Origin: Myxococcales bacterium | GTDB lineage: Bacteria > Myxococcota > UBA727 > VGSZ01 | Assembly (NCBI GenBank): GCA_023248635.1 | Contig: JAHFED010000015.1 | Location: 25,177 to 89,176, forward strand | Reading direction: 5' to 3' | Length of the DNA: 64,000 nucleotides | Shown: positions 8,515-58,770 of the stretch, in pieces | Position numbering within the stretch: position 1 is the stretch's first letter | How the letters are laid out: each line of letters starts with the position of its first letter | Program-made: the position numbers and the translations under genes | The notes under the pieces: model-generated | Told to the model about the DNA's origin: nothing | Databases searched by the model: none | The model's input: only the letters and a program-made list of their open reading frames with translations

Positions 8515-8576
8515 CGGTCCGCACGATAGCGGGGGAAAACGACAAGAGTGTGTCGATCGCGAACCAATGTTCGCCG

Positions 8577-9047: not shown

Positions 9048-9204
9048 GTTGACGCTCCTGTGGTGGTGGCGTCATCGTCGACTCAAGGCCCGTGCCGCGC
9101 TCAGCCCTCTTCGGGGTCGGCGCGCTGCTGTTGACGTCGATGGAGACGCAATCGGTGCGCGCAGGCCGCCGGAGAAGCGCAACATCTGCGGATCGTGGGG
9201 CCGC

Positions 9205-9582: not shown

Positions 9583-9777
9583 CTCATTCCCCGTCCTCGC
9601 TGTCATCGATGCCGAGGCCCAAGCGGCAGCAGCAACGCGCGCAGACATCCGGGCCAGGACCTCGCAGGCGTCGACGTCGTCGTCGGCAACGACGGCTCGG
9701 CGACGACGCGTCTTGGTGGGGACGATGTCGAGGTGTCGACGTCGGCGCACGATCCGGGACAACAGCATCCCGGGACA

Positions 9778-17363: not shown

Positions 17364-17456
17364 GAATTCACCGACAGCGCTGCGCGTGTCGGTGAATTGT
17401 CTACAGGTTCATCGCCTGGCGGCGATGAATCGTCTACCGGTTCATCGCCGGTGGCG
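17364..17456. repeat. Double-hairpin palindromic repeat element, copy 1 (one unit plus a partial unit)
   Basis: The sequence GAATTCACCGACA-GCGCTGCGCG-TGTCGGTGAATT (hairpin A), GTCTACAGG, then TTCATCGCC-TGG-GGCGATGAA (hairpin B) is near-identical to copies at 22842, 30804 and 43087. Confidence 0.9.
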
Positions 17457-30793: not shown

Positions 30794-31016
30794 GGCGGTT
30801 TCCGAATTCACCGACAGCGCTTCGCGTGTCGGTGAATTGTCTACAGGTTCATCGCCTGGCGGCGATGAATTGATTGACCTTCGCCAGGCTTGGTCCTTTC
30901 CTCGATGCCTTCGTTGCGTGCTCGGTGAAGCCGGAGAGGCTGCCCCTGCGCCGCGCCTCGGCCTCGAGGAAATTCCCGGCGTCGGGCTCGATCAATCAAC
31001 AAGGAAACCGCCCTAG
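30790..31016. mobile_element. MITE-like element: 13-bp terminal inverted repeats (TAGGGCGGTTTCC ... GGAAACCGCCCTA) around a 226-bp segment that contains one double-hairpin repeat unit (30804-30872)
   Basis: A perfect 13-bp inverted repeat is read directly from the sequence. It exactly fills the gap between two convergent genes. Both gene stop codons (TAG) are supplied by the repeat termini. Confidence 0.55.
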
Positions 31017-40942: not shown

Positions 40943-41593
40943 TCACCGCACCGTCAACGAAGGCAGCAAGCGCGGACCGCCGAGGTCGTCGACCAGGCGC
41001 GCGAGGGTGCGAGCTTCGGCCAGCAGCGCACCCACCTGCCGCAAGCGCACGGCCTCGGCAGAGGGGTTGCCATAGCCGCCGACGACGTCGTCGACGATGC
41101 GCAGCTCCGCCTCGACCTTGGCCATCAGCGCCTCGAAACGGGCGACGCCATCGGCGACGACGGCAGCCTTGTGGGCCGGGGAGCTTTCTGCTTCTTCGCG
41201 GGCTTCGATGAAGGCCACCAACAGGGCCTGGCGCAGGGGAGGCTCGGGGACACCCGCCGTCGTCAGCAGCAGGGCGGCGCGATCAAAGGGGATGCGCACA
41301 AGGCGCCAGGCGTCGTTCAAGGCGGCCGTCTGCTCGACGGCGAAACGTCTTTCGGCGTCGCTCTTGCGCACCGCGCGATCGGGATGCACCACGCGCGTGC
41401 GCTGCAACCACGAGGCCTCGAGGGCTTTTTCGTCGACGACAAAGCGGGGACGATCGAGACCCAACCGGACAAAGGACGACGCTGAGGGGTGGGGTGGCAC
41501 CAGGGCCTTGCAGGAGGGACAAGTCAGCGGCGCCAGGGCGGCGTCGAAGGGAGCCCCGCAGGACCGGCACAGGAGCTCGAGGGACGCGCTCAC
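40943..41593 (-). CDS. J-domain co-chaperone (HscB-like) with an N-terminal Cys4 zinc ribbon
   Basis: CRSCGAPF...CPSC is followed by the J-domain HPD tripeptide (RTRVVHPDRAV) and a C-terminal helical bundle. The inferred GTG start overlaps the upstream stop as GTGA. Confidence 0.5.
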   Translation of the reverse strand: MSASLELLCRSCGAPFDAALAPLTCPSCKALVPPHPSASSFVRLGLDRPRFVVDEKALEASWLQRTRVVHPDRAVRKSDAERRFAVEQTAALNDAWRLVRIPFDRAALLLTTAGVPEPPLRQALLVAFIEAREEAESSPAHKAAVVADGVARFEALMAKVEAELRIVDDVVGGYGNPSAEAVRLRQVGALLAEARTLARLVDDLGGPRLLPSLTVR

Positions 41594-42054
41594 GCCGTAT
41601 CGGGTTCGCGCACGGCCGACAGCAAGGCGTCGATCTTCTGTTCCTCGGGTTTCCACGGGGCCAAGAAGCGCGCTTTGCGTTCGGCGCGGGTGAGGATCAA
41701 AACCGCGGCGCTCGTCGACAAACCCTGCCGGCGGGCCTCCTTCAAAAAGAGGCGGCGCACCGAGAGGCTGCCGATGGCGAACACCGGCATCCCGACCGTC
41801 GCCGCCAGCACCCCATAGATGAGGACCGCATACAGGCCACGCACGTCGAGCAGACCGAAGATGGCGACGCCGGCGGCGCAGCAGGCCAGGGCCACTAGGT
41901 TGCGCAGGCGTCGCAACATCACGAGCTGCTGCAGCAGGCCGGCCACGGTGTCGTCGTCGACCTCGCGCACGCGGCGGTGCCAAGGCTCCACGAACTGATC
42001 CTGCGACTGCGGGGCGAAGGGTGTGGCTTCCAGGAGCGCGTGCTCGTCGGACAT
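41590..42054 (-). CDS. Small membrane protein (2 TM helices)
   Basis: The C-terminal half is hydrophobic (LVALACCAAGVAIFGLL...VLIYGVLAATVGMPVFAIGSL). The start is uncertain; the ATG at 42054 overlaps head-to-head with the ATG of the divergent gene. Confidence 0.4.
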   Translation of the reverse strand: MSDEHALLEATPFAPQSQDQFVEPWHRRVREVDDDTVAGLLQQLVMLRRLRNLVALACCAAGVAIFGLLDVRGLYAVLIYGVLAATVGMPVFAIGSLSVRRLFLKEARRQGLSTSAAVLILTRAERKARFLAPWKPEEQKIDALLSAVREPDTA

Positions 42055-42103
42055 GACGCAGCCTACCTCGCTCTCGCCGACGACGTCGTGCCACACTGGC
42101 TGC

Positions 42104-43078
42104 GTGCGGATCCATCCGGGCGGATTTCGACTGGTGCTCGCGGGGCCGAGGGTGTCGAGGTTGCTGCCCTTTCTGCAGGAGAAGGGCTTCGTCGGCGATG
42201 CCTTCGCCAACGGCAAGCAGGCCCTCGAGCACCTGCGAGGCTCGCCCTGCCACGTGCTGTGCATCGAGATCGAGGTCGGCGACATGATGGGCGTCGACCT
42301 GGCCCGCATCGGCAAAGACGAAGGTCTCGTCGGCGCCACCTTGCTCCTGGAAGATCCGATCAAGTCGGGCATGGTGATTTCGGCGTTGGCGCGCGGCATC
42401 GAGGCCTTCGTGCCGGTCCCGCCCGACGAAAAGCTGCTGCTCGACCGGCTCGAGGCCCTGCTGCTGGCCCAATGGGGGCTCGTCGTCAGCCAGCAGCAAG
42501 AGCAGCAGACGCAGGAGCTGGCGCGCGCCCGTCTCGAGCTCGATCAGGCGGGAAAAAAAGCCCAGCAGGCAGAGGAGGTCTTTCGAGAGCTCACCCAGAG
42601 CGCCAGCCGAGACCTCGCCGACGAACGGCGCAAAGTTGCAGAGTTGGAGAGTGAGATCGCGTCGTTGCGCGACCAGCTGGCGACCATGCACCTGCTGGTG
42701 GGGGCAAAGACCGGCAACACCGACGAAGGCCTCTCAACCCGCTCTGGCGAAGGGAGGAGGGTCAGCGGCAGCAACATCCCCGCAGGCGACTTCGACGACG
42801 AGATCACGCTGAAACGGCAGGCCGTGGTGCGAAACGAGCCCACCACCCGGCCCCAGCAGGCTCTCCCCGACGTCGACGACGCGCCGACGCCTCACCTTCC
42901 TCGGGCAGCGGCCCGTCCGGTGAAAAAAGATGGCAGCCCCGGCCAGTCCGCGGAAGCACTTCCAAAGGCACGCAAGAGCCCAGCGACGACGGCCAAGCTC
43001 GATGTGGGCATGTTGAGAGAGCTGGCCGGCATCCCCAAGTCTGGCGAAGAAGAGATCATCTTCGTCGAGGATGACTGA
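42104..43078 (+). CDS. FrzS-like (pseudo)receiver plus coiled-coil protein
   Basis: REC-like FRLVLAGPRVSRLLPFLQEKGF...VLCIEIEVGDMMG is followed by a coiled-coil (QQQEQQTQELARARLELDQAGKKAQQAEE...). The start is ambiguous between 42023, 42053 and 42104. Confidence 0.55.
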   Translation: MRIHPGGFRLVLAGPRVSRLLPFLQEKGFVGDAFANGKQALEHLRGSPCHVLCIEIEVGDMMGVDLARIGKDEGLVGATLLLEDPIKSGMVISALARGIEAFVPVPPDEKLLLDRLEALLLAQWGLVVSQQQEQQTQELARARLELDQAGKKAQQAEEVFRELTQSASRDLADERRKVAELESEIASLRDQLATMHLLVGAKTGNTDEGLSTRSGEGRRVSGSNIPAGDFDDEITLKRQAVVRNEPTTRPQQALPDVDDAPTPHLPRAAARPVKKDGSPGQSAEALPKARKSPATTAKLDVGMLRELAGIPKSGEEEIIFVEDD

Positions 43079-43086
43079 CAACAGCG

Positions 43087-43344
43087 GAATTCACCGACAG
43101 CGCTTCGCGTGTCGGTGAATTGTCTACACGTTCATCGCCTGGCGGCGATGAATTCACCGACGGCTTCGCGTGTCGGTGAATTGTCTACGGGTTCATCGCC
43201 TGGCGGCGATGAATTCACCGACAGCGCTTCGCGTGTCGGTGAATTGTCTACACGTTCATCGCCTGGCGGCGATGAATTCACCGACGGCGCTTCGCGTGTC
43301 GGTGAATTGTCTACGGGTTCATCGCCTGGCGGCGATGAATTCTC
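43087..43344. repeat. Tandem array of four double-hairpin palindromic repeat units (63/61/63/63 bp), copy 4
   Basis: (GAATTCACCGACAGCGCTTCGCGTGTCGGTGAATTGTCTACACGTTCATCGCCTGGCGGCGAT) repeats four times head-to-tail with no unique spacers. Alternating unit variants indicate duplication of a 2-unit block. Confidence 0.95.
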
Positions 43345-43358
43345 ATAGCGTCGCAGCC

Positions 43359-44582
43359 ATGGACGTCGTCTTCATCGAGCCCTGCTTTCCCCAAAACCAG
43401 CGGGAGTTCGTGCGCGCGCTGCACGCTGTCGGCGCTCGCGTCAGTGGCATCGGCGAACGTCCCAAGGAGTCCCTCGACGGCGAACTGAGGCACTGGCTCT
43501 CGCACTATGAGCAAATTCGAAACGTCACAGACATCGGCGATGTCGAACGCGCGGTTCGCTTCATCCAATCCAAGGTGAGGGTGCAAAGGCTCGAGGCCGT
43601 CGTCGAGGCCCACGTCATGACCGCGGCCAAAGTACGGGAGCGCTGCGGGATCCCAGGCACCAGCGTGAACTCCACCTGGCTCTGCCGCGACAAGCCGGCC
43701 ATGAAGGACGCCCTGCGCGAGGCTGGCGTCGCCTGCGCCCAATCCATCGGCTCCAGCGACGCCGCCGAAATCCGGGCCTTCGCCGCCCAGGTTGGCTTCC
43801 CCATGATCATCAAGCCCCGCGATGCGGCCGGAGCCTCAGGCACCGTCCGCGTCGACGACGTCGCCAGCTTGGAGCGGGCGCTGGTCGAGTTCGACGTTGT
43901 CAAAGGCAAGAGTGTCGCCGTCGAAGAATTCATCGAGGGACATGAGGGCTTCTACGACACCCTCACCGTCTCCGGCCGCGTCGTCGCCGACTTCGCCACC
44001 CACTATTTTCCCAACGTGCTCGAGGCCATGCGCACCCGCTGGATCTCGCCGCAGTTCATCACGACCAACCGCCTCGATCACGCCTCGGCCTACGGCGAGG
44101 TCAGGGCCATGGGCCAGCAGGTGATCAGCGCGCTGGGCATCGAGACCTCGGCCACGCACATGGAGTGGTTCTTTGGTCCCAAGGGGCTCAAGTTCAGCGA
44201 GATCGGCTGCCGGCCTCCCGGCGTGCGCACCTGGGACCTCTACTGCGCCGCCAACGACGTCGACGTCTACCAGGAATGGGCGATGGCGGTGGTGCACGGC
44301 AAGCGCGGCCAGGCTCTGTCGCGCCGCTTTTCGGCGGGCATGATCGCGCTGCGGCCCGAATGCGACGGCACCATCGTCGGCTACGAGGGCGTCGACGAGG
44401 TGCACCGGCGCTTCGGCGAGTGGTTCATCGACGAGCACCTGCCCCCCCGCGGACACCCGACCCAGCCCGTCGACGCCGGCTTCATGGCCAACGCCTGGAT
44501 GAGGCTCAAACACCCCGACTACGACACGCTGCGCGGCATGCTCGATGTGATCGGCCAGACCGTGAAGGTGCGCGCGCGCTGA
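43359..44582 (+). CDS. ATP-grasp family ligase (RimK/D-Ala-D-Ala-ligase-like fold)
   Basis: The central ATP-grasp region ...CRDKPAMKDALREAGVACAQS...GFPMIIKPRDAAGASGTVRV... is present. I placed the start at ATG 43359 (MDVVFIEP), immediately after the repeat array. Confidence 0.7.
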   Translation: MDVVFIEPCFPQNQREFVRALHAVGARVSGIGERPKESLDGELRHWLSHYEQIRNVTDIGDVERAVRFIQSKVRVQRLEAVVEAHVMTAAKVRERCGIPGTSVNSTWLCRDKPAMKDALREAGVACAQSIGSSDAAEIRAFAAQVGFPMIIKPRDAAGASGTVRVDDVASLERALVEFDVVKGKSVAVEEFIEGHEGFYDTLTVSGRVVADFATHYFPNVLEAMRTRWISPQFITTNRLDHASAYGEVRAMGQQVISALGIETSATHMEWFFGPKGLKFSEIGCRPPGVRTWDLYCAANDVDVYQEWAMAVVHGKRGQALSRRFSAGMIALRPECDGTIVGYEGVDEVHRRFGEWFIDEHLPPRGHPTQPVDAGFMANAWMRLKHPDYDTLRGMLDVIGQTVKVRAR

Positions 44583-44592
44583 GCGACGTGTA

Positions 44593-45666
44593 TTGACCCT
44601 TGCTGTGAGCACCGTGCCGGAAGAACAGAGCCAGCCCCCCCAAGCAGCGAGGCCGTCGGCGGCGGCGAACAACACCTCGCGCACCGCCGTGCTCTTGGGA
44701 GCCCAGCGCTTCAACCCCACCCTCGGCAGCGTCGTCGCCTCCCTCGGCCTGCAGGGACGGGTCGCGCTCATCACCGCGGGTTGGCAGGAACGGGAGCGCG
44801 AAGACGACGAGCTCTCGACCCACCTCGGCAGCAACACCATCAACCTGGGCCTGCATGCTCGCGGCGGCGCCGTGTTCCACGAGGACAAGGAGCTGGCCGT
44901 TGCCCACCGCGAACGCCAGGACTTGCTGCGGCATCTGCAAGAAATCTATCGCATTCGGCTCGAGGCCGCCTTCGAGGCCGAGCGCGACGTTCGTGCCTAC
45001 GACACGCCACCGGCCCTTCGTGACGAGGTGGCAGAGGCGTCGATCGAGGCCATCCGCGGCCTCGACGCCTGGCACCTCGATCAGTGCGCCCGCGTGCGCG
45101 CCGACTTCGAAGGGCGCTTTCATGTCGCCCAGCGGCCGGCGGTCGCTCGCCAGCGCGAGGAGCTGCGAAAGCTCCTGCAGGACTGCAGCGCCGTCGCCAT
45201 CGCCGGCGGCCACGTCGCCGTCCTTGTCAACCGCTTGGTGCTCTTTGGCCTCGACGAGCTCATCGGCGATCGGCCGATCTTCGCCTGGTCGGCGGGGGCC
45301 ATGGCCGTGAGCGATCGCATCGTGCTCTTTCACGACGATCCGCCTCAGGGACGCATTGCTCGTCAGGTGCTCGACGTCGGCCTGGGCTTCGTCCCAAAGA
45401 CCGTGGTGCTGCCCGAGCCGGAGCGGCGGCTCCACCTCGAGGCCCAGGATCGCATCTCGCTGGTGGCGCGCCGTTTTGCGCCGGCGACCTGCCTGGCCTT
45501 TCCGGCTTGCTCCTACGTCGTCTGGCGAGCTGGTCACATCGAGCGCGCCGAAGGGGTCATCGAGCTCAGCGCTGGCGGCGAGCACCGGCCCTTTCTCCCC
45601 GAGGAGCACGATCGCCGGGCCCGGCCCGATCGACGCGCGAGCAGCCGCGACCGGCGGGCCCGATGA
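44593..45666 (+). CDS. Peptidase S51 family protein (cyanophycinase / dipeptidase-E-like)
   Basis: The nucleophile motif GxSAG is seen as AWSAGAMAV, inside a class-I glutamine-amidotransferase-like fold (AVAIAGGHVAVLVNRL...). It is 10 nt downstream of the ATP-grasp gene. Confidence 0.55.
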   Translation: MTLAVSTVPEEQSQPPQAARPSAAANNTSRTAVLLGAQRFNPTLGSVVASLGLQGRVALITAGWQEREREDDELSTHLGSNTINLGLHARGGAVFHEDKELAVAHRERQDLLRHLQEIYRIRLEAAFEAERDVRAYDTPPALRDEVAEASIEAIRGLDAWHLDQCARVRADFEGRFHVAQRPAVARQREELRKLLQDCSAVAIAGGHVAVLVNRLVLFGLDELIGDRPIFAWSAGAMAVSDRIVLFHDDPPQGRIARQVLDVGLGFVPKTVVLPEPERRLHLEAQDRISLVARRFAPATCLAFPACSYVVWRAGHIERAEGVIELSAGGEHRPFLPEEHDRRARPDRRASSRDRRAR

Positions 45667-45754
45667 TGCTCTCCGCGCCACAGACCTGGCTCAGGGGATC
45701 GTTCAACGACGTTGAGACAAAGATCGGGACCATCGGGACGATGGCGAGGCCACG

Positions 45755-46906
45755 ATGGTGACCCCTCCCACCACCACCGCCGTCGAAGAGCTCATCGAGG
45801 CTTGGTCCGATCCGGCCAAGGTGCGGGGCTTCCTGTCGACGCACAAGTTCCCGCTGGTGCACGGCTCGCTGGTCACCTTCGTCTGGCTCGGTCACGCCGA
45901 CGGCGTCAGCCTCCGCCATTGGGTCTACGGCCTCGAGTCGTCGACGACGCTGACGCGGGCGCCCAACACCGACATCTGGCACCTCACCCTCGAGATCCCG
46001 TCGAACTCGCGCGTCGAATACAAATTCGAGCTCCACCGCGGCGGCCACAACGAGTGGATCGAAGACCCCCTCAACCCCGCCCGGGCCCGCGACCCCTTCG
46101 GCGCCAACTCGGTGCTGCAAGGCGAGGGCTACGTCATCCCCGAGTGGACCAACCCCGACGCCGTCACCCGCCGCGGCACCCTCGAGCCCCTCATCGTCGA
46201 CAGCAAAGCCCTGGGCAACCGTCGCTTCGGCCATCTCTATCTGCCGGCCCGCTTTCGCCGTTCGCGTCAATATCCTCTGTTGGTGGTGCACGACGGCGAC
46301 GACTACATTCGCTATGCCAACATGGTCACGGTGTTGGACAATCTCATTCACCGCCTCGAGATTCCGGACTTGATTGTAGCGTTTACGGGTTCGCCGGATC
46401 GCCTGCGCGAATACGCCGACAACGAGGCCCACGCCCGCTTTGTCACCGAAGAGATGCTGCCCCAGATCGCCTCGCGCTTTCCCCTCGTCGACCAGCCTCA
46501 AGGCCGCTGCTTGATGGGAGCCAGCTTCGGCGCCGTCGCCGCTTTTTCCACCGCCTGCCGCTACCCGAGCGTGTGGGGACGCCTGCTGCTGCAATCGGGG
46601 AGCTTCGCGTTCACAGACATCGGCCGCCGCAACCGCCGCGGACCCCTCTTTGACCGCGTCGTCGAATTCGTGAACGCCTACCGCGCCGAGCCCAAGGCCA
46701 TCAGCCAGCGCGTGTTCATCAGCTGCGGCGTCTACGAGTCCTTGATCTACGAGAACCGCTCGCTGGCTCCCTTGCTCGACGCCACCGGCATGCAGGTGCG
46801 CTTCGTCGAAGCCAGAGACGGCCACAATTGGCAGAATTGGCGCGACCGCCTGCGCGAAGGCCTGTCCTGGCTCTTCCCTGGCCCGCTGCTCTTCGTTTAT
46901 GAATAA
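45755..46906 (+). CDS. Enterochelin-esterase-like alpha/beta hydrolase (N-terminal Ig-like domain plus esterase domain)
   Basis: The GxSxG nucleophile CLMGASFGAVAAF is present, preceded by ...YPLLVVHDGDDY.... The N-terminal beta-sandwich is like that of Fes/IroE-type esterases. Confidence 0.65.
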   Translation: MVTPPTTTAVEELIEAWSDPAKVRGFLSTHKFPLVHGSLVTFVWLGHADGVSLRHWVYGLESSTTLTRAPNTDIWHLTLEIPSNSRVEYKFELHRGGHNEWIEDPLNPARARDPFGANSVLQGEGYVIPEWTNPDAVTRRGTLEPLIVDSKALGNRRFGHLYLPARFRRSRQYPLLVVHDGDDYIRYANMVTVLDNLIHRLEIPDLIVAFTGSPDRLREYADNEAHARFVTEEMLPQIASRFPLVDQPQGRCLMGASFGAVAAFSTACRYPSVWGRLLLQSGSFAFTDIGRRNRRGPLFDRVVEFVNAYRAEPKAISQRVFISCGVYESLIYENRSLAPLLDATGMQVRFVEARDGHNWQNWRDRLREGLSWLFPGPLLFVYE

Positions 46907-46920
46907 GTGCGCTTGGGCGA

Positions 46921-48198
46921 TTGCCGGCGCCGAGGTCCACCATGGCTGAGGTCACGCGACGCATCGGGCTCTCCTTGGGCGCCGACATCTGCTGGCCCGC
47001 CTGCTTCGAGCACATGCTCAGAGAGCTCGATCTCAAGATCCCCGTCGACGGCGACACCGTGCGCTTCGAGTGCGAGCGGGTCACCATCGAGCCCTTCGAC
47101 CTGCAGCAACCCTGCAAATACGACGTCGTCATCGATCGATTGACCCACTGGTATCACACCAGCCGTGAGTGGATCAAAAAGTCCATCATCATGGACGACC
47201 TTTATGTATTCAACAACCCCTGGAGCGTGCAGTCCAACGAGAAGCACACCAGCTACTGCGCGATGATGCACCTGGGCATGCCCATCCCCACGACGTGGAT
47301 GATCCCCCCGCGCAGCTACGAAAAAGAGCTCCCCGACGTCAAAGTCACACTCAACAAATACGCGCGCCTCTTCGACCTCGGCAAGCTCGGCGACAAGGTC
47401 GGCTGGCCCCTGTACCTCAAGCCCTACGACGGCGGCGGCTGGCGCGCGGTCACCCGCGTCTCTGACGTCAAAGCCGCCTGGAAGGCCTACGACGACAGCG
47501 GCAAGGCGGTCATGCACGCCCAGGCCTCCGTCGAGGGCTTTGACCGCTTCGTGCGCTGCATCGGCTTTGGACCCCAGACCAAGTGCGTGCTCTACGACCC
47601 CTCGGCCCCCCTGCACGACCGCTACACCCTGCAGACCAACTTCATCTCCGACGCCGACGCCGAACACCTGCGCAAGGTCACGGTCACCATCAACGCCTTC
47701 TTCGGCTGGGACTTCAACTCCTGCGAAGCCCTGCGCAAGCCCTCTGCTGGCGGCGCCGGCGGCGTCTGGCATCCCATCGACTTCGCGAACCCCTGCCCCG
47801 ACTCGCAGGTGACCTCGCTGCACGGCCATTTTCCCTGGCTGGTGAAGGCCTACCTGCGCTGGGCCCTCTTTTGCGCCGCCACCAAAAGAAAGATGCGCCG
47901 CACCCTGGACTGGCAGCCCTTCTACGACGTCGCCGCCCTCGATCTCTCCTACGAAGAAAAACTCGATCGCTACGCCGCCATCGCCGACGAGCGCATGGGC
48001 CGCGCGCAATTTGAAGAGTTCTGCGCCAGGCACCTGAGCCACCTCGACGACGTCGCCTTCGCCTTCTTCGGCACCCAAGAGGCCAAAGACGCCGTGCGCC
48101 AGAAGACCGCGGCTTTGTTTCCGGCTCATGAGGTCGAAAAGTTCACCGAGCTCTTCTGGCAGCGCATTCAAGCCTGGCGGGCGGCCGGCGTCCCGTGA
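46921..48198 (+). CDS. Second ATP-grasp family ligase (RimK/GspS-like)
   Basis: ...VQSNEKHTSYCAMMHLGMPIPTTWMIP...GWPLYLKPYDGGGWRAVTRV... matches the S-N-K and K-P-x-D-G-x-G-x-G-V ATP-grasp motifs. The start may be 46921 or 46942. Confidence 0.6.
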   Translation: MPAPRSTMAEVTRRIGLSLGADICWPACFEHMLRELDLKIPVDGDTVRFECERVTIEPFDLQQPCKYDVVIDRLTHWYHTSREWIKKSIIMDDLYVFNNPWSVQSNEKHTSYCAMMHLGMPIPTTWMIPPRSYEKELPDVKVTLNKYARLFDLGKLGDKVGWPLYLKPYDGGGWRAVTRVSDVKAAWKAYDDSGKAVMHAQASVEGFDRFVRCIGFGPQTKCVLYDPSAPLHDRYTLQTNFISDADAEHLRKVTVTINAFFGWDFNSCEALRKPSAGGAGGVWHPIDFANPCPDSQVTSLHGHFPWLVKAYLRWALFCAATKRKMRRTLDWQPFYDVAALDLSYEEKLDRYAAIADERMGRAQFEEFCARHLSHLDDVAFAFFGTQEAKDAVRQKTAALFPAHEVEKFTELFWQRIQAWRAAGVP

Positions 48199-48659
48199 GC
48201 GAGTTTTGGTTCGGCTCGCTTTATGAGGAGATGAGAGAACCACAGGGCGATCTTTTTGACGACGTTCTCGCTCCTCGCCTCGATGACGCCCATCGGGCAC
48301 TTCAGGAGATGGACTATGTCTTTCGAGATGAAGGGGCGTTGCTCCTCGATAAAGACGTCGAAAATGAGCGCGATTTATACGCTTTCTCTCGAGTTGCCGA
48401 TCAGTTGATCTCACGGGTCGCTTCCAAAGAAGAGCGGGTTCGATGGCTGATGGATGATGAGGTGTTGCACTTGATTGGTGACAACAAAATCCTTGATAAA
48501 AACCACTTTGAACGCCTCGATTTGGGCGATCTCACCCACGCCGATCGGGTGGAGCTGCTCCGTCATCGCTGTTTCGTCACCGGTCGTCACGACGTAGGGC
48601 GTGAGCATCCCGACCGCTCCACGGACTTTCGCTACGAGGAACCGAATTCGACGGCGTAG
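48195..48659 (+). CDS. Small acidic protein (154 aa) of unknown function in a sharply low-GC (~50%) segment
   Basis: It overlaps the upstream ATP-grasp gene as ATGA. It is rich in D/E, and the codon usage and GC are atypical for the replicon. Confidence 0.45.
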   Translation: MSEFWFGSLYEEMREPQGDLFDDVLAPRLDDAHRALQEMDYVFRDEGALLLDKDVENERDLYAFSRVADQLISRVASKEERVRWLMDDEVLHLIGDNKILDKNHFERLDLGDLTHADRVELLRHRCFVTGRHDVGREHPDRSTDFRYEEPNSTA

Positions 48660-48673
48660 CCCTCGGCGCTTGA

Positions 48674-49459
48674 ATGCTCTCGTGCGAGCGTGCTGGCGTT
48701 CCCGTCATTGGAGGCCCCGTGTTCCTGAAGTCCCGCTGGTATTCGTCGCGCATGGGCGCCCAGTCCACCCTCGCGCGCTGGGGCGAGACCGGCCAACCCG
48801 TGCTGCTGCTGCCCACCGCCGGCGGCGACGCCGAAGAGATCGAGCGCTTTCACCTCATCACCGCGCTCAAAGACCTGCTGACGGCGGGGAAGATCAAGAT
48901 CTACTCCTGCGACAGCGTCGCCGGCCGCGCTTGGTTCAACCGCGAAGGCTCGCCCCAGCACCGCATGTGGATGCAGGACGCCTTTCACCACTACATCCGC
49001 GAAGAAGTGGTCCCCGCCATCCGCATGGATTGCAAGAAGCATCACGGCGACGACCTCCCGATCTGGAGCGCCGGCGCCTCCATCGGGGCCTTTCACGCCG
49101 CTGCCCTGGTGTGCCGCTTCCCCGACATCTTCACGCGCGCCCTGGCCATGAGCGGCACCTACAACCTCATGCGCTTCATCGAGACCGACACGCCGACGGC
49201 GGAGTACTGGCGGGCCTCTCCCCTGCAGTTCGTGCCCCACCTGCAGGGGCGCCACCTCGAGATCTTGCAGACCCGCTACATCCACATCGCCACCGGCGAA
49301 GGACGCTGGGAGTCCCTGCCGGAGAGCTGGGGATTGGCCAATGTGCTGGGCGCCAGGGGCATTCCCAACCGGGTCGAGAACTGGGGCCCGGACTGGCACC
49401 ACGATTGGGTGACCTGGCGCGAGATGCTGCCCAAGTACCTCGGCGCGTGGACCGCCTGA
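48674..49459 (+). CDS. Esterase-family alpha/beta hydrolase (esterase D / S-formylglutathione-hydrolase-like)
   Basis: The nucleophile motif is GASIGAFHAA, preceded by ...PVLLLPTAGGDAEE.... The start may be the internal ATG 48749. Confidence 0.6.
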   Translation: MLSCERAGVPVIGGPVFLKSRWYSSRMGAQSTLARWGETGQPVLLLPTAGGDAEEIERFHLITALKDLLTAGKIKIYSCDSVAGRAWFNREGSPQHRMWMQDAFHHYIREEVVPAIRMDCKKHHGDDLPIWSAGASIGAFHAAALVCRFPDIFTRALAMSGTYNLMRFIETDTPTAEYWRASPLQFVPHLQGRHLEILQTRYIHIATGEGRWESLPESWGLANVLGARGIPNRVENWGPDWHHDWVTWREMLPKYLGAWTA

Positions 49460-49546
49460 GGCCGCAAGCGTCCACCCGGTCGGTGCACGCCGGGACAGAG
49501 GGCGACGTGCTTTGACGTGCCTCTCGGTGGCGCGAGACCCTGGATC

Positions 49547-52165
49547 ATGATCAGGTCCTTCGTCGTCGTCCTCGCGTTGACGTTCATCGGTCTCGCTGGC
49601 TGTTCGGCTGCCGAGCTGGCAGGGGAGGGCGAAGAAGGCGAAGGCGAAGGCGAAGGAGAAGGCGAAGGCGAAGGTGAGGGAGAAGGCGAAGGCGAAGGCG
49701 AAGGCGAAGGTGAGGGAGAAGGCGAAGGAGAAGGCGAAGGCGAAGGCGAAGGCGAGGGCGAAGGCGAAGGCGAGGGCGAGGGCGAAGGAGAAGGAGAAGG
49801 AGAAGGTGAGGGAGAAGGTGAGGGAGAAGGTGAGGGAGAAGGAGAAGGAGAAGGAGAAGGAGAAGGAGAAGGGGAAGGCGCATCGCAGCAAGAGGACTGC
49901 GACAACGGGGACGACGACGACGGCGATGGCAACGTCGACTGTGAGGACCCAGACTGCCTCCCCACAGCACCCTGCAATGCCTGCGGCAACGGCATCCTCA
50001 ACGCTGGGGAGCAGTGTGACGACGGCAACCTCCTCGGCGGGGACAATTGCTCCCCCACCTGCTCGCTGTGCGGCAACGGCCACACCGATCCCGATGAGGA
50101 GTGCGACGACGGCAACGGCATCAACGGCGACGGGTGCGACGTCGACTGTGTCATCAACTTTTGCGGAAACAACATCGTCGATCAGGGCGAGGAGTGCGAC
50201 GACGGCGGCGCCAACTCCGACGTCCTCGCCGACGCCTGCCGCTCCTCCTGCGTCTTGGCGTTCTGCGGCGACGGCACCATCGACGCGGCTGAGCTCTGCG
50301 ACGTTGGGCAGGGCGACGGCGGCATCCCCTGCGAAAACGACTGCACCTTCACCTTCTGTGGCAACCACATCATCGACCCCGGCGAAGAATGCGACGACGG
50401 CGACAACGTCGACGGCGACGACTGCCGCTTCAACTGCTTGTTCGAGGTCTGCGGCGACGGCTTTCAAAACACCGGGGAGGCGTGTGACGACGGCGACACC
50501 CTGAGCGAGGATGGCTGCTCCTCTGGCTGCCTGGTGGAATTCTGCAGCGACGGGATCACGCAAGCGGGCCTGGGTGAGGAGTGCGACGACGGCGACATCA
50601 ACAGCGGCGACGGCTGCCGCAGCGATTGCACGGCCGAGGTCTGCGGCGACGGGATCACAGACGCCGACGAGGAGTGCGACGACGGCAACGACCAGAGCCA
50701 GGATGGCTGCTCGTCGATCTGCCTGGTGGAGAGCTGCGGTGACGGCGTCGTGCAACCCGGCCGGGGCGAGGAGTGCGACGACGGGAACTCGAACTCCAAC
50801 CTCGGAGCGTGCCTCATCAATTGCAAGCAGGCTGCGTGCGGCGACGACTTCGTTCACCTCGGTGTCGAAGGGTGCGACGACGGCAACACCGACAACGGCG
50901 ACGGCTGCGATGACGACTGCGTCAGCTCGCGCGTCCTCGCCATCGAAGCCGGCTTCGAGCATACCTGCGCGCTGCTGCCCCCGTCGCCGACGGTTCCGTC
51001 GATCCAGCGGGTGCGCTGCTGGGGACGCGGCACCAGCGGACGACTCGGCTATCCAGCCAATGGAACCAACGCCATCGGCGCCACGAACACGGTCGCAAGC
51101 TTTGGGGACGTCAATCTAGGGGGGGACGCCGTACAGGTCGCCACCGGCCGCGACCACACCTGCGCGCTCTTGGCCGATCACACCGTCCGCTGCTGGGGCT
51201 TGGGGGCAGGAGGTCAATTGGGCTACGGCGCCACCGACAACCTCGGCGACAACGAGCTCCCGGCCCTTGCGGGGGCGGTGCCCATCGGCGGACCCGTCGT
51301 GCAAATCGCCGCTGGTGCCCAGCACACCTGCGCCGTGCTCGAGAACCAAAAGGTGCGCTGCTGGGGACAGTCGGTCGAAGGCGAGCTCGGCTACGGCAAC
51401 CAAAACCCCGTGGGCAACACTGCGCAGTCGCGGCTGACAGAGCTCCCGGCGCCCGACGTCAACGTCGGCGGCGACGTCGTGCAAATCGCCGCCGGTGACT
51501 TTCACACCTGCGCCATCCGCGACACCGGCACGGTGGTTTGCTGGGGCTTCGGCGGCGACGGTCAGCTGGGCTATGGAAACACGTCTACCGTTGGCGCTCT
51601 CGATGTCCCCGCCGCTCGCGAGGTCAACCTCGGGCCCGGCGCGGCAGCCATCCAGATTGTGGCCGGCTCCCGACACACCTGCGCGCTGCTCTTGGGGGGG
51701 GCGGTGCACTGTTGGGGATTGGGCGACAGCGGCCAGCTCGGCTACGGCAGCAACCTCGAGGTCGGCGACAACGAGACCCCTGCCGCCGCCGGCCCCGTCT
51801 CCATCTCCGCCACCGGGGCAAAGACGGTGCAAATCGCGGCCGGCGCTTCCCATACCTGCGCGCTCCTCGACACCGGCGAGGTGCGTTGCTGGGGTTTCGG
51901 AGCCAATGGACAACTGGGCAACTCGAGCAACGCCACCGTCAGCCTCGGTGGCCAACCACCCTCGGCGTTCGCTGTGGTCCCGCTCGGCGCCGACGTCGCG
52001 CAGATCACGGCCGGTGGTTTTCACACGTGCGCGCTCCTGGTGACCGGCAGGGTCGTCTGCTGGGGGAGCAGCAGCCAAGGTCAGCGCGGCTACGGCAACA
52101 CCACGACCATCGGCGACAACGTGAACCGCCCGCCCCAACTGGATGGCTTCGTGCCGGTGTACTGA
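49547..52165 (+). CDS. Lipoprotein: (Gly-Glu)n linker, multiple Myxococcus-type cysteine-rich (myxo-disulfide, TIGR02232-like) repeats, C-terminal RCC1/beta-propeller repeats
   Basis: [19 protein letters not shown] (lipobox) is followed by ~85 aa of (EG)n. About 12 repeats of ...CGNG/CGDG...EECDDGN...DGC...C... follow, then 7 or more repeats of HTCALL..G.VRCWG.G..GQLGYG (RCC1). Confidence 0.85.
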
Positions 52166-52326
52166 CGAGAGCCCGGGGGGTGGCACCCAGCCGCCCAGAC
52201 GCAGCACCCTCGAGGCTCGCTCGTTGGAGCCGGCGCAGACGACGACGTGCACGTTTGGGGCGTGACTTGTTGTATTCCTGGCGGCCGCTCACGAACCTCA
52301 GGACGCCGCCGCCCGGGCAACGAGAA

Positions 52327-54318
52327 ATGACGATGGACGAGAACCGGACCCACAAAGCTGTCGACGGCGAGCTCGAAGGCGAGGGTCGGCGCGCCTACAT
52401 GCACGCGCTGCTGCGCGATCTGCACGCCCTCGACGCCATGGTCGAGCAGGACGCCTTCGAACGCGGCGTCAGTCGCATCGGCGCCGAACAAGAGATGTTC
52501 CTCGTCGACGACGCCTTCCACCCCACCAAGGGTGCGCTCAAGGTGCTCGAGCAGCTCGACGATCCCCGCTTCACCACCGAGCTTGGGCTCTTCAACCTCG
52601 AAGCCAACGCCGGCGCCCAACCCTTCTCGGGCACGGGCCTGTCGGACATGGAAAAGGAGATGCACCTGCTCTTTGAGAAGGTGCGCACGGCGGGGTCGTC
52701 CATCGGCGTCAAACCGATCATGGCCGGCATTCTCCCCACCATCGGCAAGACCGATCTCGGCCTCGACAACATGGTGCCCAAGCCGCGCTACCAGGCGCTG
52801 AACCGGGCCATGAACGCCGCCCGCGGCGAGGCCTTCGACTTCTCCATCCGCGGCATCGACGAGCTGGTGGTGCGCCACGACTCCGTCATGGTCGAAGCCT
52901 GCAACGCCAGCTTTCAGGTGCACCTGCAACTCGCCGAGCCCGAGCGCTTCGCCCACCACTACAACATCGCCCAACTGCTGCTCGGACCGGTACTGGCGGC
53001 GGGTCCCAACTCGCCCCTGCTCTTCAACCGCCGCCTGTGGGCAGAGACCCGCATCGCTCTCTTCGAGCAGTCCTGCGACGTGCGCACGCCGGGACTTCAC
53101 TTGCGCGACTCCATGGGCCGCGTCTCCTTCGGCCGCCAATGGCTCAAAGGCGGCGTCGCCGATCTCTACAAAGAAAACGTCTCCCGCTTCCGCGCCCTCG
53201 TCGGCACCCCCCTCGACGCTGGCGACGACGGCCCCGATGCCCTTGCTGCGGGCCGTGTGCCCACCATGAAGGCCCTGCGCCTGCACAATGGCACCGTCTA
53301 CCGCTGGAACCGTCCCTGCTACGGCGTCTCCGAAAACGGCAAACCCCACCTGCGCATCGAGCTGCGCGTGTTGCCCTCAGGACCCACCGTCGCCGACGAA
53401 ATCGCCAACGCCGCTCTGTGGCTCGGCCTGATGAGCGAGCTGGGAGCCACCGTCGACGACGTCGCCTCACGGGTCGGCTTCGAAGACGCGCGGGCCAACC
53501 TCTACGCCGCCGCTCGGGATGGCTTGCGCGCCAGGCTCACTTGGCTCGACGGCGAAGAGGTCGCCGTCGACACCCTCTTGCTCGATCGCTTGTTGCCCCT
53601 GGCCAAGGCCGGCTTGAACCGAGCAAAGATCGCCGGCGCCGACAGCGATCGCTACCTGGGCATCCTCGAGAAGCGCTGGCGCACCCAGCGCACGGGGTCG
53701 TCGTGGATGCTGCAGTCCCTCGCCGGCATGAAGGGCCGGGGCACACCGGGAGCGCGCTTGACGGCGTTGACGGCGGCCATCCATGCCCGGCAACAGTCGA
53801 CGCAGCCGGTGACGGAGTGGGAGCTGGCCCAGCTCGACGAGCACGAGAGCGCCAGCGCGCACTTTCAGAAGGTCTCTCAGTTCATGCTGACCGACATCTA
53901 CACGGTGCGTCCCGACGACCCCATCGAGTTGGTGTGGGACCTGATGACCTGGGAGCGAGCCCGCTACGTGCCCGTCGAGGACGAGCGCGGCCGCTTGGTG
54001 GGCCTGGTCTCTTACCGCGGTGTCATGCGCCACCTGGGCAGCGTTGCCCGCGGCAGCGTCGACAGCGCGTCGATGGCCCCCGTTTCGCAGATCATGAGGC
54101 GCGAGCTGATCACCGTGACCCCCGATACGCCGACGCGTGAAGCCATCGGCTTGATGAAGACGCACAAGATCGGCGCGCTGCCCGTGGTGCAGGGCGAGCA
54201 CATCGTGGCCATCGTGACCGAAGCCGAATTCGTCGGATTGGCCGCCAAGCTGCTCGAGGGCTTCGTCACCGAGCTGCCGTCGTCGTCGTCGTTGCCCTCT
54301 CCCGCTGAGAGGGGCTGA
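52327..54318 (+). CDS. GCS2-family carboxylate-amine ligase (YbdK-like glutamate-cysteine-ligase family 2) fused to a C-terminal CBS-domain pair
   Basis: The N-terminal ~400 aa is GCS2-like (...RIGAEQEMFLVD..., ...FQVHLQL...). The C-terminal ~150 aa has two CBS motifs (MLTDIYTVRPDDPI...; IMRRELITVTPDTPTREAIGLMKTHKIGALPVV). The start is ATG 52327 (MTMDENRTH). Confidence 0.7.
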   Translation: MTMDENRTHKAVDGELEGEGRRAYMHALLRDLHALDAMVEQDAFERGVSRIGAEQEMFLVDDAFHPTKGALKVLEQLDDPRFTTELGLFNLEANAGAQPFSGTGLSDMEKEMHLLFEKVRTAGSSIGVKPIMAGILPTIGKTDLGLDNMVPKPRYQALNRAMNAARGEAFDFSIRGIDELVVRHDSVMVEACNASFQVHLQLAEPERFAHHYNIAQLLLGPVLAAGPNSPLLFNRRLWAETRIALFEQSCDVRTPGLHLRDSMGRVSFGRQWLKGGVADLYKENVSRFRALVGTPLDAGDDGPDALAAGRVPTMKALRLHNGTVYRWNRPCYGVSENGKPHLRIELRVLPSGPTVADEIANAALWLGLMSELGATVDDVASRVGFEDARANLYAAARDGLRARLTWLDGEEVAVDTLLLDRLLPLAKAGLNRAKIAGADSDRYLGILEKRWRTQRTGSSWMLQSLAGMKGRGTPGARLTALTAAIHARQQSTQPVTEWELAQLDEHESASAHFQKVSQFMLTDIYTVRPDDPIELVWDLMTWERARYVPVEDERGRLVGLVSYRGVMRHLGSVARGSVDSASMAPVSQIMRRELITVTPDTPTREAIGLMKTHKIGALPVVQGEHIVAIVTEAEFVGLAAKLLEGFVTELPSSSSLPSPAERG

Positions 54319-54322
54319 GCCC

Positions 54323-55570
54323 ATGCAGCTCCAACCCAGCGTTGGCGCCGACCGCCAGGCGAAGTCGTCCTCGTCCGCTCCCACTGGGGCACCCTCTCCC
54401 AAAACTGTGGGCGGCCGGGCGTCGACACCTGGCGAGGCCACTACCGGAGTCGCTTGCGAGCGCGTGATGGGGCGGGTGCGGGGACAAGAGGCGGGACCCT
54501 CCCTCGTCGTCGTCGCTGGCATCCATGGCAACGAGCCCGCGGGGGTCGAGGCCGCCCGGCGGGTGCTCTTGCGGCTGGCCCAGGGCGACATCGCCTTGCG
54601 CGGTGAGCTGGTGATCTTGGGCGGCAACGTCGCGGCCTTGCGTACCGGTGCCCGCTACCTTCAGCGCGACCTCAACCGCGGTTGGACCGACGACGACGCC
54701 TTGCGCTTGCAGACCGCAACGCCGGGGAGCTTGCAGGCCGAAGATCGCGAGCAGGCCGAGCTTCTGGCGGCCATCGAGGTCGTGCGCTCGACGGCGCGGG
54801 GGGCGGTGCACCTCGCCGATCTCCACACCTCGAGCGCGCCCGGCGTTCCCTTCGTCATCTTTGGCGACACGTTGGTGCAACGGCGTTTCGTGCGGGTCTT
54901 TCCCATTCCGGTGATCATCGGCCTGGTCGAGCACGTCGACGGCGTCCTCTCGGAATTCTGGAGCCGCCGCGGCCTGGTGACCTTCTCCGTCGAAGGCGGC
55001 CAGCACGAAGACCCGCGCTCTCGCGATGGGCTCGAGGCCATCCTCTGGCTGGCGCTTTCCCAGGCCGGGATGATTGCGACGTCGACGCCGCCGGAGGTGG
55101 CAGCAGCGACCCGCTTGCTCGACCAGAGGCGGGGAGACCTGCCCCGCGTCCTCGATGTGGTGTCGCGCCATTCGATCACCGCCGCCGACGCCTTCGTCAT
55201 GGAGCCGGGTTTTCGCAACGTGCACCGCATCCCCAAGGGCTGCCTGCTGGCCCACGATCGCCGGGGGGAGATCCGCGCCAGCAGCGCCGGCGTCGTCGTG
55301 CTGCCGCTGTATCAAAAGCTCGGCAGCGACGGCTTCTTCTGGGCTCTCGAGGTCAGCGATGGCCAGCTGAGAATTTCTGAGCTGCTGCGTCGCCTCCCCG
55401 TCGATGCCCTCGTCACCTTGTTGCCAGGCGTGAAGCGCGACGCAGCCCAGCCGCGCCGCCTCGAGGTCTCGACCACCACCGGTCGCGCAAAGATCTTGTC
55501 GCTGCTGCGCCTGCTCGGCTACCGGCGAGAGAAAACCACGGGAACGACGTCGACGGTGGAGCGCGCGTAG
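54323..55570 (+). CDS. Succinylglutamate desuccinylase/aspartoacylase (AstE/AspA, M14-like) family deacylase
   Basis: Zn-binding motifs VVAGIHGNEPAG and ...LHTSS... are present. It begins 5 nt after the GCS2-CBS gene. Confidence 0.7.
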   Translation: MQLQPSVGADRQAKSSSSAPTGAPSPKTVGGRASTPGEATTGVACERVMGRVRGQEAGPSLVVVAGIHGNEPAGVEAARRVLLRLAQGDIALRGELVILGGNVAALRTGARYLQRDLNRGWTDDDALRLQTATPGSLQAEDREQAELLAAIEVVRSTARGAVHLADLHTSSAPGVPFVIFGDTLVQRRFVRVFPIPVIIGLVEHVDGVLSEFWSRRGLVTFSVEGGQHEDPRSRDGLEAILWLALSQAGMIATSTPPEVAAATRLLDQRRGDLPRVLDVVSRHSITAADAFVMEPGFRNVHRIPKGCLLAHDRRGEIRASSAGVVVLPLYQKLGSDGFFWALEVSDGQLRISELLRRLPVDALVTLLPGVKRDAAQPRRLEVSTTTGRAKILSLLRLLGYRREKTTGTTSTVERA

Positions 55571-55702
55571 TCGCGACGGACGTTTCTTGTTCAAAACGCT
55601 GGCGTGTCTTCCGCGCCAAATCTTCAAGTCGCTGGCGCGCGCGATGATGCGATGGAGATGGAGATCCCTTTGTCGACGTCGATGACGCGCTACAATTCAA
55701 CC

Positions 55703-56500
55703 ATGCGCTCGTTGTTCGTCGTCGTCGTCGTCTTGCTTCTCGCCGCCTGTCCCCAACATCCCGACGAAGGAGGCTTTCCCGCCGAAGGGGAGCTCGGTGG
55801 CGAAGGCGAAGAGGGGGAAGGCGAAGAGGGGGAAGGCGAAGGCGAAGGCGAGGGCGAGGGCGAGGGCGAAGGCGAGGGCGAAGGACCGCAGCCGGGCTTC
55901 GGTGCGATCTCAGGTCCTTGTGGGGTGCTCGATGACGAGCTCAGCAGCCCGCTGCCCTTCTATCTCGATGAGACCAGCATCGACTTCGGCACCGATCCCT
56001 ACGACGACGCCGACCTGCTGCTGCTCACCGCTGGAGGCCAAGAGATGGTCTCTGACGACAACGCCGGCGGGAACTCTTTGCTCTCGGAGGTGTTTAGCTT
56101 CGAGTTCTTGGCGCGCTGTGAAGGTGCAACCTTGTTCAAGACCGAGACCGAAGTCGAATATACGGTGAAACAGACGAAGATCACCGATCTCGTGGTGCTC
56201 ATCGAAGGCGTACGCTACGGTGTCAGTGTGGTGCGCACTTTCGTGTTTCCCGAGGGCACGCCCTTGTCGTCCGAAGAAGCCACCCGCCGTCTCGAGGGAA
56301 AGCTCGACGACATCTTGGTCAGCAGCGCCAACGTCGCCGCCTCCGATGCCTGGGACAAGCAGATCCTGGCCGTCATCGCCAACGAACCGGAACACCTCGC
56401 GGTCTGGCGCGCTGCCTACGATGATCTCGATGATGAAACCCGCGCTGATACCATCGTTTATGTGATTCTGACCAACGGCGACGACGCCTTCCTTCACTGA
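55703..56500 (+). CDS. Lipoprotein with a (Gly-Glu)n linker
   Basis: MRSLFVVVVVLLLAAC (lipobox) is followed by [27 protein letters not shown] and a ~200-aa globular domain of unknown function. Confidence 0.6.
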   Translation: MRSLFVVVVVLLLAACPQHPDEGGFPAEGELGGEGEEGEGEEGEGEGEGEGEGEGEGEGEGPQPGFGAISGPCGVLDDELSSPLPFYLDETSIDFGTDPYDDADLLLLTAGGQEMVSDDNAGGNSLLSEVFSFEFLARCEGATLFKTETEVEYTVKQTKITDLVVLIEGVRYGVSVVRTFVFPEGTPLSSEEATRRLEGKLDDILVSSANVAASDAWDKQILAVIANEPEHLAVWRAAYDDLDDETRADTIVYVILTNGDDAFLH

Positions 56501-57134: not shown

Positions 57135-57222
57135 GCGATCTGCATAGCCAATTTTTGGCCGTGCCAACGGCCAAAACATCAGCACTTTGTGTCCCAAGCG
57201 CCAGTCGTGCGAACACAGCTTC

Positions 57223-58770
57223 ATGACGACGATGACGAACTACGGAAAACCCGCGAAGAAGGCGAAGAAGGTCACAGCCTTCCCCCGCTCGGCCGGGGTC
57301 TTGTTGCACCCGACCTCGCTCCCTTCACCTCATGGCATTGGCGACGTCGGCGCTGGCGCCCGGGCTTTTGTGGATTGGCTGGCCCATGCCGGCTGTCAAC
57401 GCTGGCAAATCTTGCCCCTGGTGCCCGTGGGCGAGAGCTGGTCGCCCTATGCGTCTTTGTCGGCGTTGGCCGGCAATCCGCTGCTCATCGACCTCGACAA
57501 CCTTGTCGTCCGCGGGCTGCTCACCAAAGAAGAGGTCGAGCCCAAGATCGCCTTCAACCGCGACAACGTCGACTGGGCCAGGGTGCCCGCCTTCAAGCAG
57601 TCGCGCATCGACACCGCTTGCGATCGCTTCGGCCAAACCAAGGCAGGCCAAGAGACGCTGGCGCGCTACCGCCACGAACAGCCTTGGGTCGACGACGACG
57701 CGCTCTTCATCGCCATCAGAAACGCCCACCAGGGCAAAGCGTGGTGGCAGTGGGAGGAGGGGCTTCAGGAGCGGGCGCCGGCGGCCATTGCCAAGGCCAG
57801 AAACGATCTCCGCACGCAAATCGAGAGACGAGTGCTCGAGCAGGCCCTCTTCGAAGAGCAGTGGCAAGGCCTGCGCACCTACGCTCGCAGCAAGGGCGTG
57901 AGCGTCATTGGCGATGCTCCCATCTATGTGGCCGACGACTCCGCCGACGTCTGGGCCCACCGCCAATTCTTCGAGCTCGACGACGAGGGGCAGCCGACGC
58001 ACGTCGCGGGTTGTCCGCCGGATGCCTTCTCCGAGACGGGCCAATGGTGGGGCTCGCCCCTGTACCGCTGGGACAAGATGAAGGCCGATGGCCACAAGTG
58101 GTGGATCGAGCGCATTCGCCGCAACCTGGCTCTCACCGACGTCGTGCGCATCGATCACTTCCGCGGCTTCGCTGGCTATTGGTCCATCCCAAAAAAGGCC
58201 AAAGACGCCCGCAGCGGATCCTGGCGCGAAGGACCAGGACAAGCCCTCTTCGACGACGTGCAAAAGGCCCTGGGCCCGAACTTGCCGATCATCGCCGAAG
58301 ACCTCGGCGTCATCACCGACGACGTCATCGCCCTGCGGGATCGGGTGGGCCTGCCGGGCATGAAGATCTTGCAGTTCGCTTTCGGCGCCGGCCACGACAA
58401 CGCCTACTTGCCCCACCACCACGTCGAAAACTGCGTGGTCTACACGGGCACCCACGACAACGACACGACACTGGGCTGGTGGAAGAACGAAGCCGATCAC
58501 GTGCGCGATCATGTGCGTCATTACTTGGGCCGCGACGGCAGCGACGTCGTCTGGGACTTCATCCGCTTGGCCCTGCTCTCGGTGGCCCACACCGCTGTCG
58601 TCCCTTTTCAAGACGTGCTCACCCTCGACTCAGGAGCCCGCTTGAACACGCCGGGCCTGGCCACCGGCAACTGGTCGTGGCGCGTGCGCCTCGATGCCTT
58701 CCATCCCAACCTGTCGATGCGCCTGCGCGGGCTGGTCGAGCTCGGTTACCGCCTGCCCCACGCGGGGTGA
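57223..58770 (+). CDS. malQ: 4-alpha-glucanotransferase (amylomaltase, GH77)
   Basis: ...[14 protein letters not shown]..., [20 protein letters not shown] and HDNDT are MalQ/GH77 hallmarks. The start may be 57187, 57223 or 57232. Confidence 0.9.

Follow-up and report, generated by a model that had tools for sequence, protein, structure and literature searches.

We analysed a 64,000-nucleotide stretch of DNA from a Myxococcales bacterium (assembly GCA_023248635.1, contig JAHFED010000015.1, positions 25,177 to 89,176 of the forward strand), hereafter the window, for a group of closely spaced genes that code for ATP-grasp ligases and hydrolase-type proteins. A sequence-only reading had placed six + strand genes, A to F, between 43359 and 49459 and proposed that they form a coherent amide-ligase/hydrolase system. 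Here, we found all six genes in place inside this span; the span, however, misses two further conserved genes, G and H (52333-55570). The conserved unit in the window consists of A, B, C, D, F, G and H (43359-55570) and is broken by two strain-specific insertions, so that nine + strand open reading frames (ORFs) lie from 43359 to 55570. The window has about 68% GC, and its real genes show a GC content at third codon positions (GC3) of 0.8-0.9.

All genes of the unit lie on the + strand. Gene A (43359..44582) codes for an ATP-grasp ligase of the L-amino-acid-ligase type with 407 amino acids (aa), B (44614..45666) for an S51-fold (cyanophycinase/dipeptidase-E-like) protein of 350 aa with a helical hairpin insert of ~80 residues, and C (45755..46906) for a Fes-like serine esterase of 383 aa with an N-terminal Ig-like domain. 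D (46942..48198), the signature gene, codes for an unclassified ATP-grasp ligase of 418 aa with a C-terminal helical domain. It is followed by F (48719..49459), a small serine esterase (alpha/beta hydrolase, 246 aa) and distant paralog of C, by G (52333..54318, 661 aa), which joins a ligase-like domain of ~500 aa to a C-terminal CBS pair, and by H (54323..55570), an AstE/AspA-family zinc deacylase of 415 aa. The spacers between the conserved genes measure 4-90 bp.

How widely is this arrangement kept? We compared 84 genome-derived and 80 metagenome-derived related loci (~160 in all). A scan of GTDB genomes with a D profile returned at least 582 species-level genomes that carry D, and the best 80 were taken as loci; nearly all of them carry labels of Myxococcota lineages, because the alignment of divergent D homologues was too variable for the scan and another D alignment was used. 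The metagenome scan was seeded with divergent D homologues, and several hundred contigs matched. In the closest relative, GCA_030685175.1, whose D is 91% identical to that of the window, A-B-C-D-F-G-H are contiguous. Across ~77 Myxococcota loci, B-C-D are contiguous in essentially all, A adjoins them or sits a few kb upstream, and F-G-H follow directly downstream or at a distance of 4-7 kb; G comes after F in about 40 of these loci, and H then after G. The gene set is thus real, vertically conserved and widespread, and the co-occurring neighbourhood that the sequence-only reading had suggested looking for exists, with synteny kept across hundreds of genomes.

The metagenome loci fall into three patterns. 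Besides the Myxococcota type, we observed an intermediate type with the order (A)-B-C-D-F(-A), in which D is 56-65% identical, and a distant type (D 39-46% identical), in which C-like and F-like genes lie directly upstream of D in the order C-F-D, between unrelated flanks. This order was present in 21 of the 31 divergent loci (D below 50% identity) that have enough upstream sequence. In one locus (L085) the gene at 8348-9988, immediately upstream of the D homologue, codes for one 546-aa protein in which a C-like esterase (residues 1-285) is joined to an F-like one (309-542). In another (L086), the gene 6 bp upstream of the D homologue codes for a genuine S51 peptidase (48.9 bits). G and H were found almost exclusively alongside a D of the Myxococcota type (at least 70% identity). 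From the C-F-D linkage in distant soil bacteria and the fusion in L085 it follows that D and the two serine esterases of Fes/CE1 type, C and F, make up the evolutionary core, rather than a ligase/S51 pair, and that B and A are frequent accessories. The minimal esterase-esterase-ATP-grasp form, seen for example in contigs L125 and L149, consists of three genes and is compact enough for direct expression and assay.

The 154-aa ORF E (48195..48659, +), which had been proposed as a substrate or carrier protein, is a strain-specific insertion outside the conserved system. It lies within a ~450-bp low-GC insertion (48199-48708). In a blastn comparison with the closest relative, 43353-48198 and 48709-49457 align, and 48199-48708 faces a 62-bp spacer. 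By tblastn, E is absent from the 84 genome and 80 metagenome loci, save for L004, a longer public contig that holds this very DNA and over 21 kb differs from the window by a single 36-bp gap. E has no match in Pfam, NCBIfam, PHROGs, PDB, plasmids, phages or viral contigs, and forms a singleton cluster in a collection of 15 billion proteins. As the sequence-only reading had said, E is acidic (isoelectric point, pI, 4.7), low in GC and overlaps the stop codon of D; the overlap is, however, GTGA and not ATGA, and the GC content is 0.54 (GC3 0.60). No Shine-Dalgarno sequence was found upstream of E, and the gene caller used on L004 called a 65-aa antisense ORF in its place. Since 154 open codons in DNA of 54% GC are unlikely by chance, E may still be a real, recently acquired gene. 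As a conserved substrate, precursor or carrier it is ruled out by its absence from all related loci and its lack of homologues, which removes a misleading lead.

An imperfect 22-nt inverted repeat (77% complementary; 48161-48182 and 48659-48680) brackets the low-GC insertion, with its left arm inside the 3' end of D; it could be due to chance or be the trace of an insertion event.

Ligase-type proteins A, D and G

A scores 29.1 bits with the Pfam ATP-grasp model PF02222 (cut-off 27) and displays the motifs IIKPRDAAGASG and EIGCRPPG. Its best solved relatives in the PDB are RizA (4wd3, 7e-11), BacD and BL00235, within a range of 7e-11 to 6e-7, and with these L-amino-acid ligases it shares the single-domain layout of ~410 aa. 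In contrast to them, A reaches no equivalog model and stands in no recognised antibiotic cluster. With the RimK family model TIGR00768 it scores 29.1 bits, under the cut-off of 143.4. The A orthologs upstream of B-C-D in Myxococcota loci are 70-78% identical to it.

Many loci contain, besides the set, one or two more ATP-grasp genes that share 30-36% identity with A and often form a divergent pair; none of them occurs in this window. They were seen in L003 (1-2785, together with a 445-aa protein without family match), in the upstream regions of L015, L021-L023, L041, L062, L067, L069 and L084, and in L101, L136 and L139.

D matches no Pfam or NCBIfam model. It has the features of the ATP-grasp superfamily: the three-domain fold, a Gly-rich loop, a conserved Lys that binds ATP, and metal ligands of the acidic/Asn kind. 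The Lys in KPxDGGGW, Q194, E262, D280, N283 and three Arg are invariant in homologues down to 28% identity. The D profile matches the ATP loop of Ddl and biotin carboxylases, and the best structural neighbours are RimK, synapsin and ArgX/LysX. D differs from RimK and LysX/ArgX in that it stays below the family models (TIGR00768, 12.2 bits against a cut-off of 143.4; LysX, 16 against 276) and carries an extra C-terminal helical domain of ~120 residues. More than 5,400 D homologues were found, the best 120 of which are 74-91% identical, and those whose names were read are nearly all unnamed or called "hypothetical protein"; none was found on plasmids. The cultured Labilithrix luteola DSM 27648 has a D, AKJ09_10735. 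Across loci labelled Myxococcaceae, Polyangiaceae, Labilithrix and Sandaracinaceae, D is 70-79% identical. The proposal of a coherent amide-ligase/hydrolase system, in which neither ligase is a housekeeping Ddl or PurK enzyme, is therefore supported, A being nearest to solved RizA/BacD and D being RimK/LysX-like.

In G, the CBS pair is recognised with 82 bits. The ~500-aa N-terminal domain (52333-53850) bears a PF04107 GCS2 assignment, without a weak-hit mark, in the precomputed annotation of the near-identical L004 protein and of orthologs, and its motifs IGAEQEMFLVD and RIELRVLP are ones that we take to resemble the GCS2 family. With hmmscan against the current Pfam-A, however, no GCS2 match appeared even at E <= 10; the discrepancy comes either from different model versions or from a fragile precomputed hit. 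The hhalign comparison with E. coli YbdK was not significant, and in the search against PDB sequences the CBS matches swamp the results.

Esterases C and F and the accessory hydrolase-type proteins

The two esterases share 26% identity. C scores 68 bits with Pfam Esterase (PF00756, cut-off 22) and 29.5 bits with Enterochelin_N, above the cut-off. Its nearest solved relative is Fes (2b20, 2e-14), and it also resembles ferulic-acid esterases. With Fes and the CE1-type feruloyl esterases C shares the two-domain layout and the catalytic Ser and His, and F represents a minimal version. Unlike Fes, C remains below the cut-off of the enterochelin esterase equivalog (NF007758, 114.8 against 222 bits) and has no iron-uptake context, and an ATP-grasp gene accompanies C and F in every case. 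The G255-x-S257-x-G259 elbow and H357 are at least 95% conserved among 40 homologues of C from all classes. F scores 27 bits with the same Esterase model; its G119-x-S121-x-G123 and H228-D229 are likewise at least 95% conserved (48 homologues, all classes), and GGAGG lies 5 nt upstream of its GTG start.

The Pfam survey proposed in the sequence-only reading thus identifies A, C and F above cut-offs, finds no model for D, and leaves B below PF03575 (Peptidase S51, 18 bits, cut-off 23.9), although a minority of B orthologs carry a precomputed PF03575 hit. By fold search, B has an S51 fold. Its profile retrieved only coiled-coil noise from PDB sequences, and hhalign to E. coli PepE was not significant in global mode; with the bona fide S51 protein of L086 as a bridge, hhalign aligned B at a probability of 97.7%. 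Of the Ser-His-Glu triad by which B was to be judged, one part stands: the nucleophile Ser226 is kept in an AWSAGA elbow (Thr in 2 of 36 sequences). The other two residues are replaced, since the canonical S51 His aligns to the variable B position 268 (E/Q/T/N/S) and the acid to Pro-Ala. More distant B-like proteins of the intermediate type (30-46% identity) retain LPH... and L(D/E)xG. The alignments therefore indicate that in this lineage the canonical His and acid were lost and the Ser was kept, and that the ancestral B was probably a normal S51 hydrolase. The B lineage has its own invariant H240-D241, 14 residues past the Ser.

H matches Pfam AstE_AspA_cat (PF24827) with 64 bits (cut-off 25) and carries the HGNE zinc motif at residue 68; its matches to the NCBIfam succinylglutamate desuccinylase and aspartoacylase models are under their cut-offs.

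All parts of the set come from known superfamilies, D forms an unclassified family, and the partnership of an ATP-grasp ligase with two esterases is new to the literature searched. Indeed, no paper describing the gene set was found by literature searches, which did not cover one amidoligase survey likeliest to mention it, and the view that no characterised pathway has this composition agrees with their outcome.

A proposed ligase-hydrolase cycle and its alternatives

Pairs of an ATP-grasp ligase and a hydrolase underlie cyanophycin, glutathionylspermidine, protein polyglutamylation and several antibiotics. Gene identities, folds, retained catalytic residues, the conserved linkage and the exclusion of E are direct results of the analysis. 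From the three ligase-type (A, D, G) and four hydrolase-type (B, C, F, H) proteins and the CBS sensor of G we infer what class of substrate is used, which way each step runs and what the set does for the cell, which would be an intracellular cycle of synthesis and turnover. No signal peptide was seen in the N-terminal sequences of A-H, no transporter occurs among the conserved genes in the gene tables of the related loci L001 and L003 and of L004, and the search for a short precursor-like ORF, which the sequence-only reading had called for, found no conserved one across the 160 loci; these results therefore point to an intracellular cycle of a small acidic peptide-like compound. We regard as the likeliest role of the set, at a probability of roughly 0.4, a cytoplasmic make-and-break ligase-hydrolase cycle for a small acidic peptide or depsipeptide. 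D would activate a carboxylate with ATP as an acyl-phosphate, most likely that of an Asp/Glu-type amino acid or a peptide C-terminus, and would join it to an amine or hydroxyl, yielding an intracellular small acidic peptide, depsipeptide or short oligomer. C and F, in which the catalytic Ser and His are kept, would cleave or trim this product, and the constant pairing with esterases is a hint that the chemistry includes an ester bond. In Myxococcota, this core may be elaborated by two further ligases, A of the L-amino-acid-ligase type and the GCS2-like G with its putative CBS adenosyl-ligand sensor, and on the hydrolase side by the zinc deacylase H and by B, the S51-fold protein that in this lineage has lost the canonical His and acid. 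As a whole, the set would form a cycle for a peptide-like metabolite or reserve that is gated by energy status. The extra A-like paralogs of many loci fit the stepwise assembly of a small peptide. With a minimal form this small, the gene set opens a practical way to what may be a new metabolite or modification.

Several points speak against such a cycle. Gene data alone do not identify product, substrate, phenotype or chemistry. The GCS2 assignment of G rests on the precomputed annotation and was not reproduced by hmmscan, and B, judged by its alignment, may be no hydrolase at all. The core contains a ligase and esterases, not peptidases, and a product with amide bonds only would leave the esterases unexplained. 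Moreover, D is unusually conserved (70-79% identity), which would fit a macromolecular substrate such as a protein no less well than a small molecule.

Such a substrate would be expected if the set served in protein tagging, with D attaching amino acids to a conserved protein of the cell, at its C-terminus or at a side chain, and H, B, C and F trimming or removing the tag. RimK modifies ribosomal protein S6, TTLL enzymes modify tubulin, and RimK-type ligases paired with AstE-like deacylases have been noted before. The structural neighbours of D, RimK and ArgX/LysX, act on protein C-termini, and besides the very high conservation of D among the Myxococcota loci retrieved, the lack of a transporter and of a precursor gene would be in keeping with a protein target. 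We consider tagging doubtful, since the neighbourhood encodes no candidate target, D is universally partnered by esterases and not by peptidases, D reaches only 12 bits on the RimK family model (cut-off 143), and A resembles ligases of free amino acids. A precursor or carrier would be required by a graspetide or other ribosomally synthesised and post-translationally modified peptide (RiPP), or by a LysW-type pathway. E is acidic, begins at the stop codon of D and has its 154 open codons in DNA of 54% GC, but it is an orphan singleton, lacks a Shine-Dalgarno sequence and is missing from the closest relative and all other loci. Because no other conserved small ORF fits the 4-90 bp gaps, this pathway would be left without its precursor: no conserved precursor gene stands beside D, unlike in graspetide/microviridin clusters, and no LysW-like carrier is present, the sole small ORF being the strain-specific E. 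The chance that E plays such a part is close to negligible.

A link to carbohydrate reserves is suggested by the genomic neighbourhood. In 22 of the 37 Myxococcota loci with enough upstream sequence (e.g. L003, 5128-6591), the glycogen synthase gene glgA stands divergent to A, no more than 600 bp away, and it remains with A even where A has parted from B-C-D. In the window it is found 35 kb upstream (7063-8514, -), and malQ (57187-58770, +) lies 1.6 kb downstream of H. C, a CE1-type esterase with likeness to ferulic-acid esterases, has a CBM_48 match of 20.4 bits, and G bears a CBS energy sensor; with a CBM48-like N-domain on C, the set might modify or demodify an alpha-glucan, or co-regulate a second reserve compound with glycogen. 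However, the CBM_48 match is weak and below the cut-off, while that to Enterochelin_N is above, the glgA link is limited to one phylum and may be inherited synteny, and the genes flanking C-F-D operons in other bacteria are unrelated. To our knowledge, there is no ATP-grasp chemistry on glucans, and we hold a glycogen role to be quite unlikely. The closeness of C to enterochelin esterase would also be compatible with siderophore salvage, i.e. the cytoplasmic hydrolysis of an enterobactin-type ester-linked siderophore by the Fes-like esterases. Yet its score of 115 bits is far under the equivalog cut-off, three ATP-dependent ligases would be left unexplained, and no Pfam match to a TonB-dependent receptor, uptake transporter or non-ribosomal peptide synthetase was found among the scanned or annotated genes around the cluster (window, L001, L003, L004). 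Salvage of this kind appears highly improbable.

A more far-reaching form of the ligase-hydrolase cycle would see D as the founder of a new ATP-grasp family. With the two Fes-like esterases, D would build and degrade an oligomer or polymer of amino acids held together by ester and amide bonds, which would serve as a cyanophycin-like cytoplasmic reserve or protectant. We judge this unlikely; if it were true, a previously unrecognised reserve or protective compound would be present in most sampled Myxococcota lineages and in many high-GC soil bacteria. The set is distinct from the cyanophycin system of CphA and CphB itself. The architecture of CphA has no counterpart here, there is no Mur-ligase-like domain, and the CphA models score 33.5-37.5 bits against cut-offs of 850-877. 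B of the window is without the canonical His and acid, and the constant partners of the ligase are esterases rather than an S51 protein.

Second insertion, neighbouring genes and repeat element

The second insertion (49517..52165, +) is a lipoprotein gene outside the system, with an (EG)n linker and, by Pfam, DUF4215 and RCC1 repeats; the closest relative has no such gene between F and G, nor do other loci. A (GAAGGC)x41 repeat at 49634-49880 codes for ~40 Glu-Gly dipeptides right after the lipoprotein signal (LAGC) and causes a spike of GC- and AT-skew at 49550-50000. The L004 copy of the gene is 36 bp shorter.

Upstream of A, two ORFs overlap each other: 40943-42691 (-) codes for a 582-aa protein with an HscB-like J-domain region at its C-terminus, and 42023-43078 (+) for a protein with a weak response-regulator receiver match. 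In L001 and L003, the gene tables list no member of either family upstream of A. Promoter and terminator scans were at background level and uninformative on operon structure, and an Rfam scan of 42900-56000 gave two chance-level matches only.

Between the upstream gene and A, a 63-bp element is repeated in 4.1 tandem copies (43087-43342). It is composed of two hairpins, GAATTCACCGAC...GTCGGTGAATT and TTCATCGCC...GGCGATGAA, and the folding of the tandem array has a z of -7.9. The element has no Rfam match. Single copies lie directly past the stop codons of two other genes (17364-17426 and 30804-30866), and the element looks like a dispersed intergenic element of the repetitive extragenic palindromic (REP) kind.

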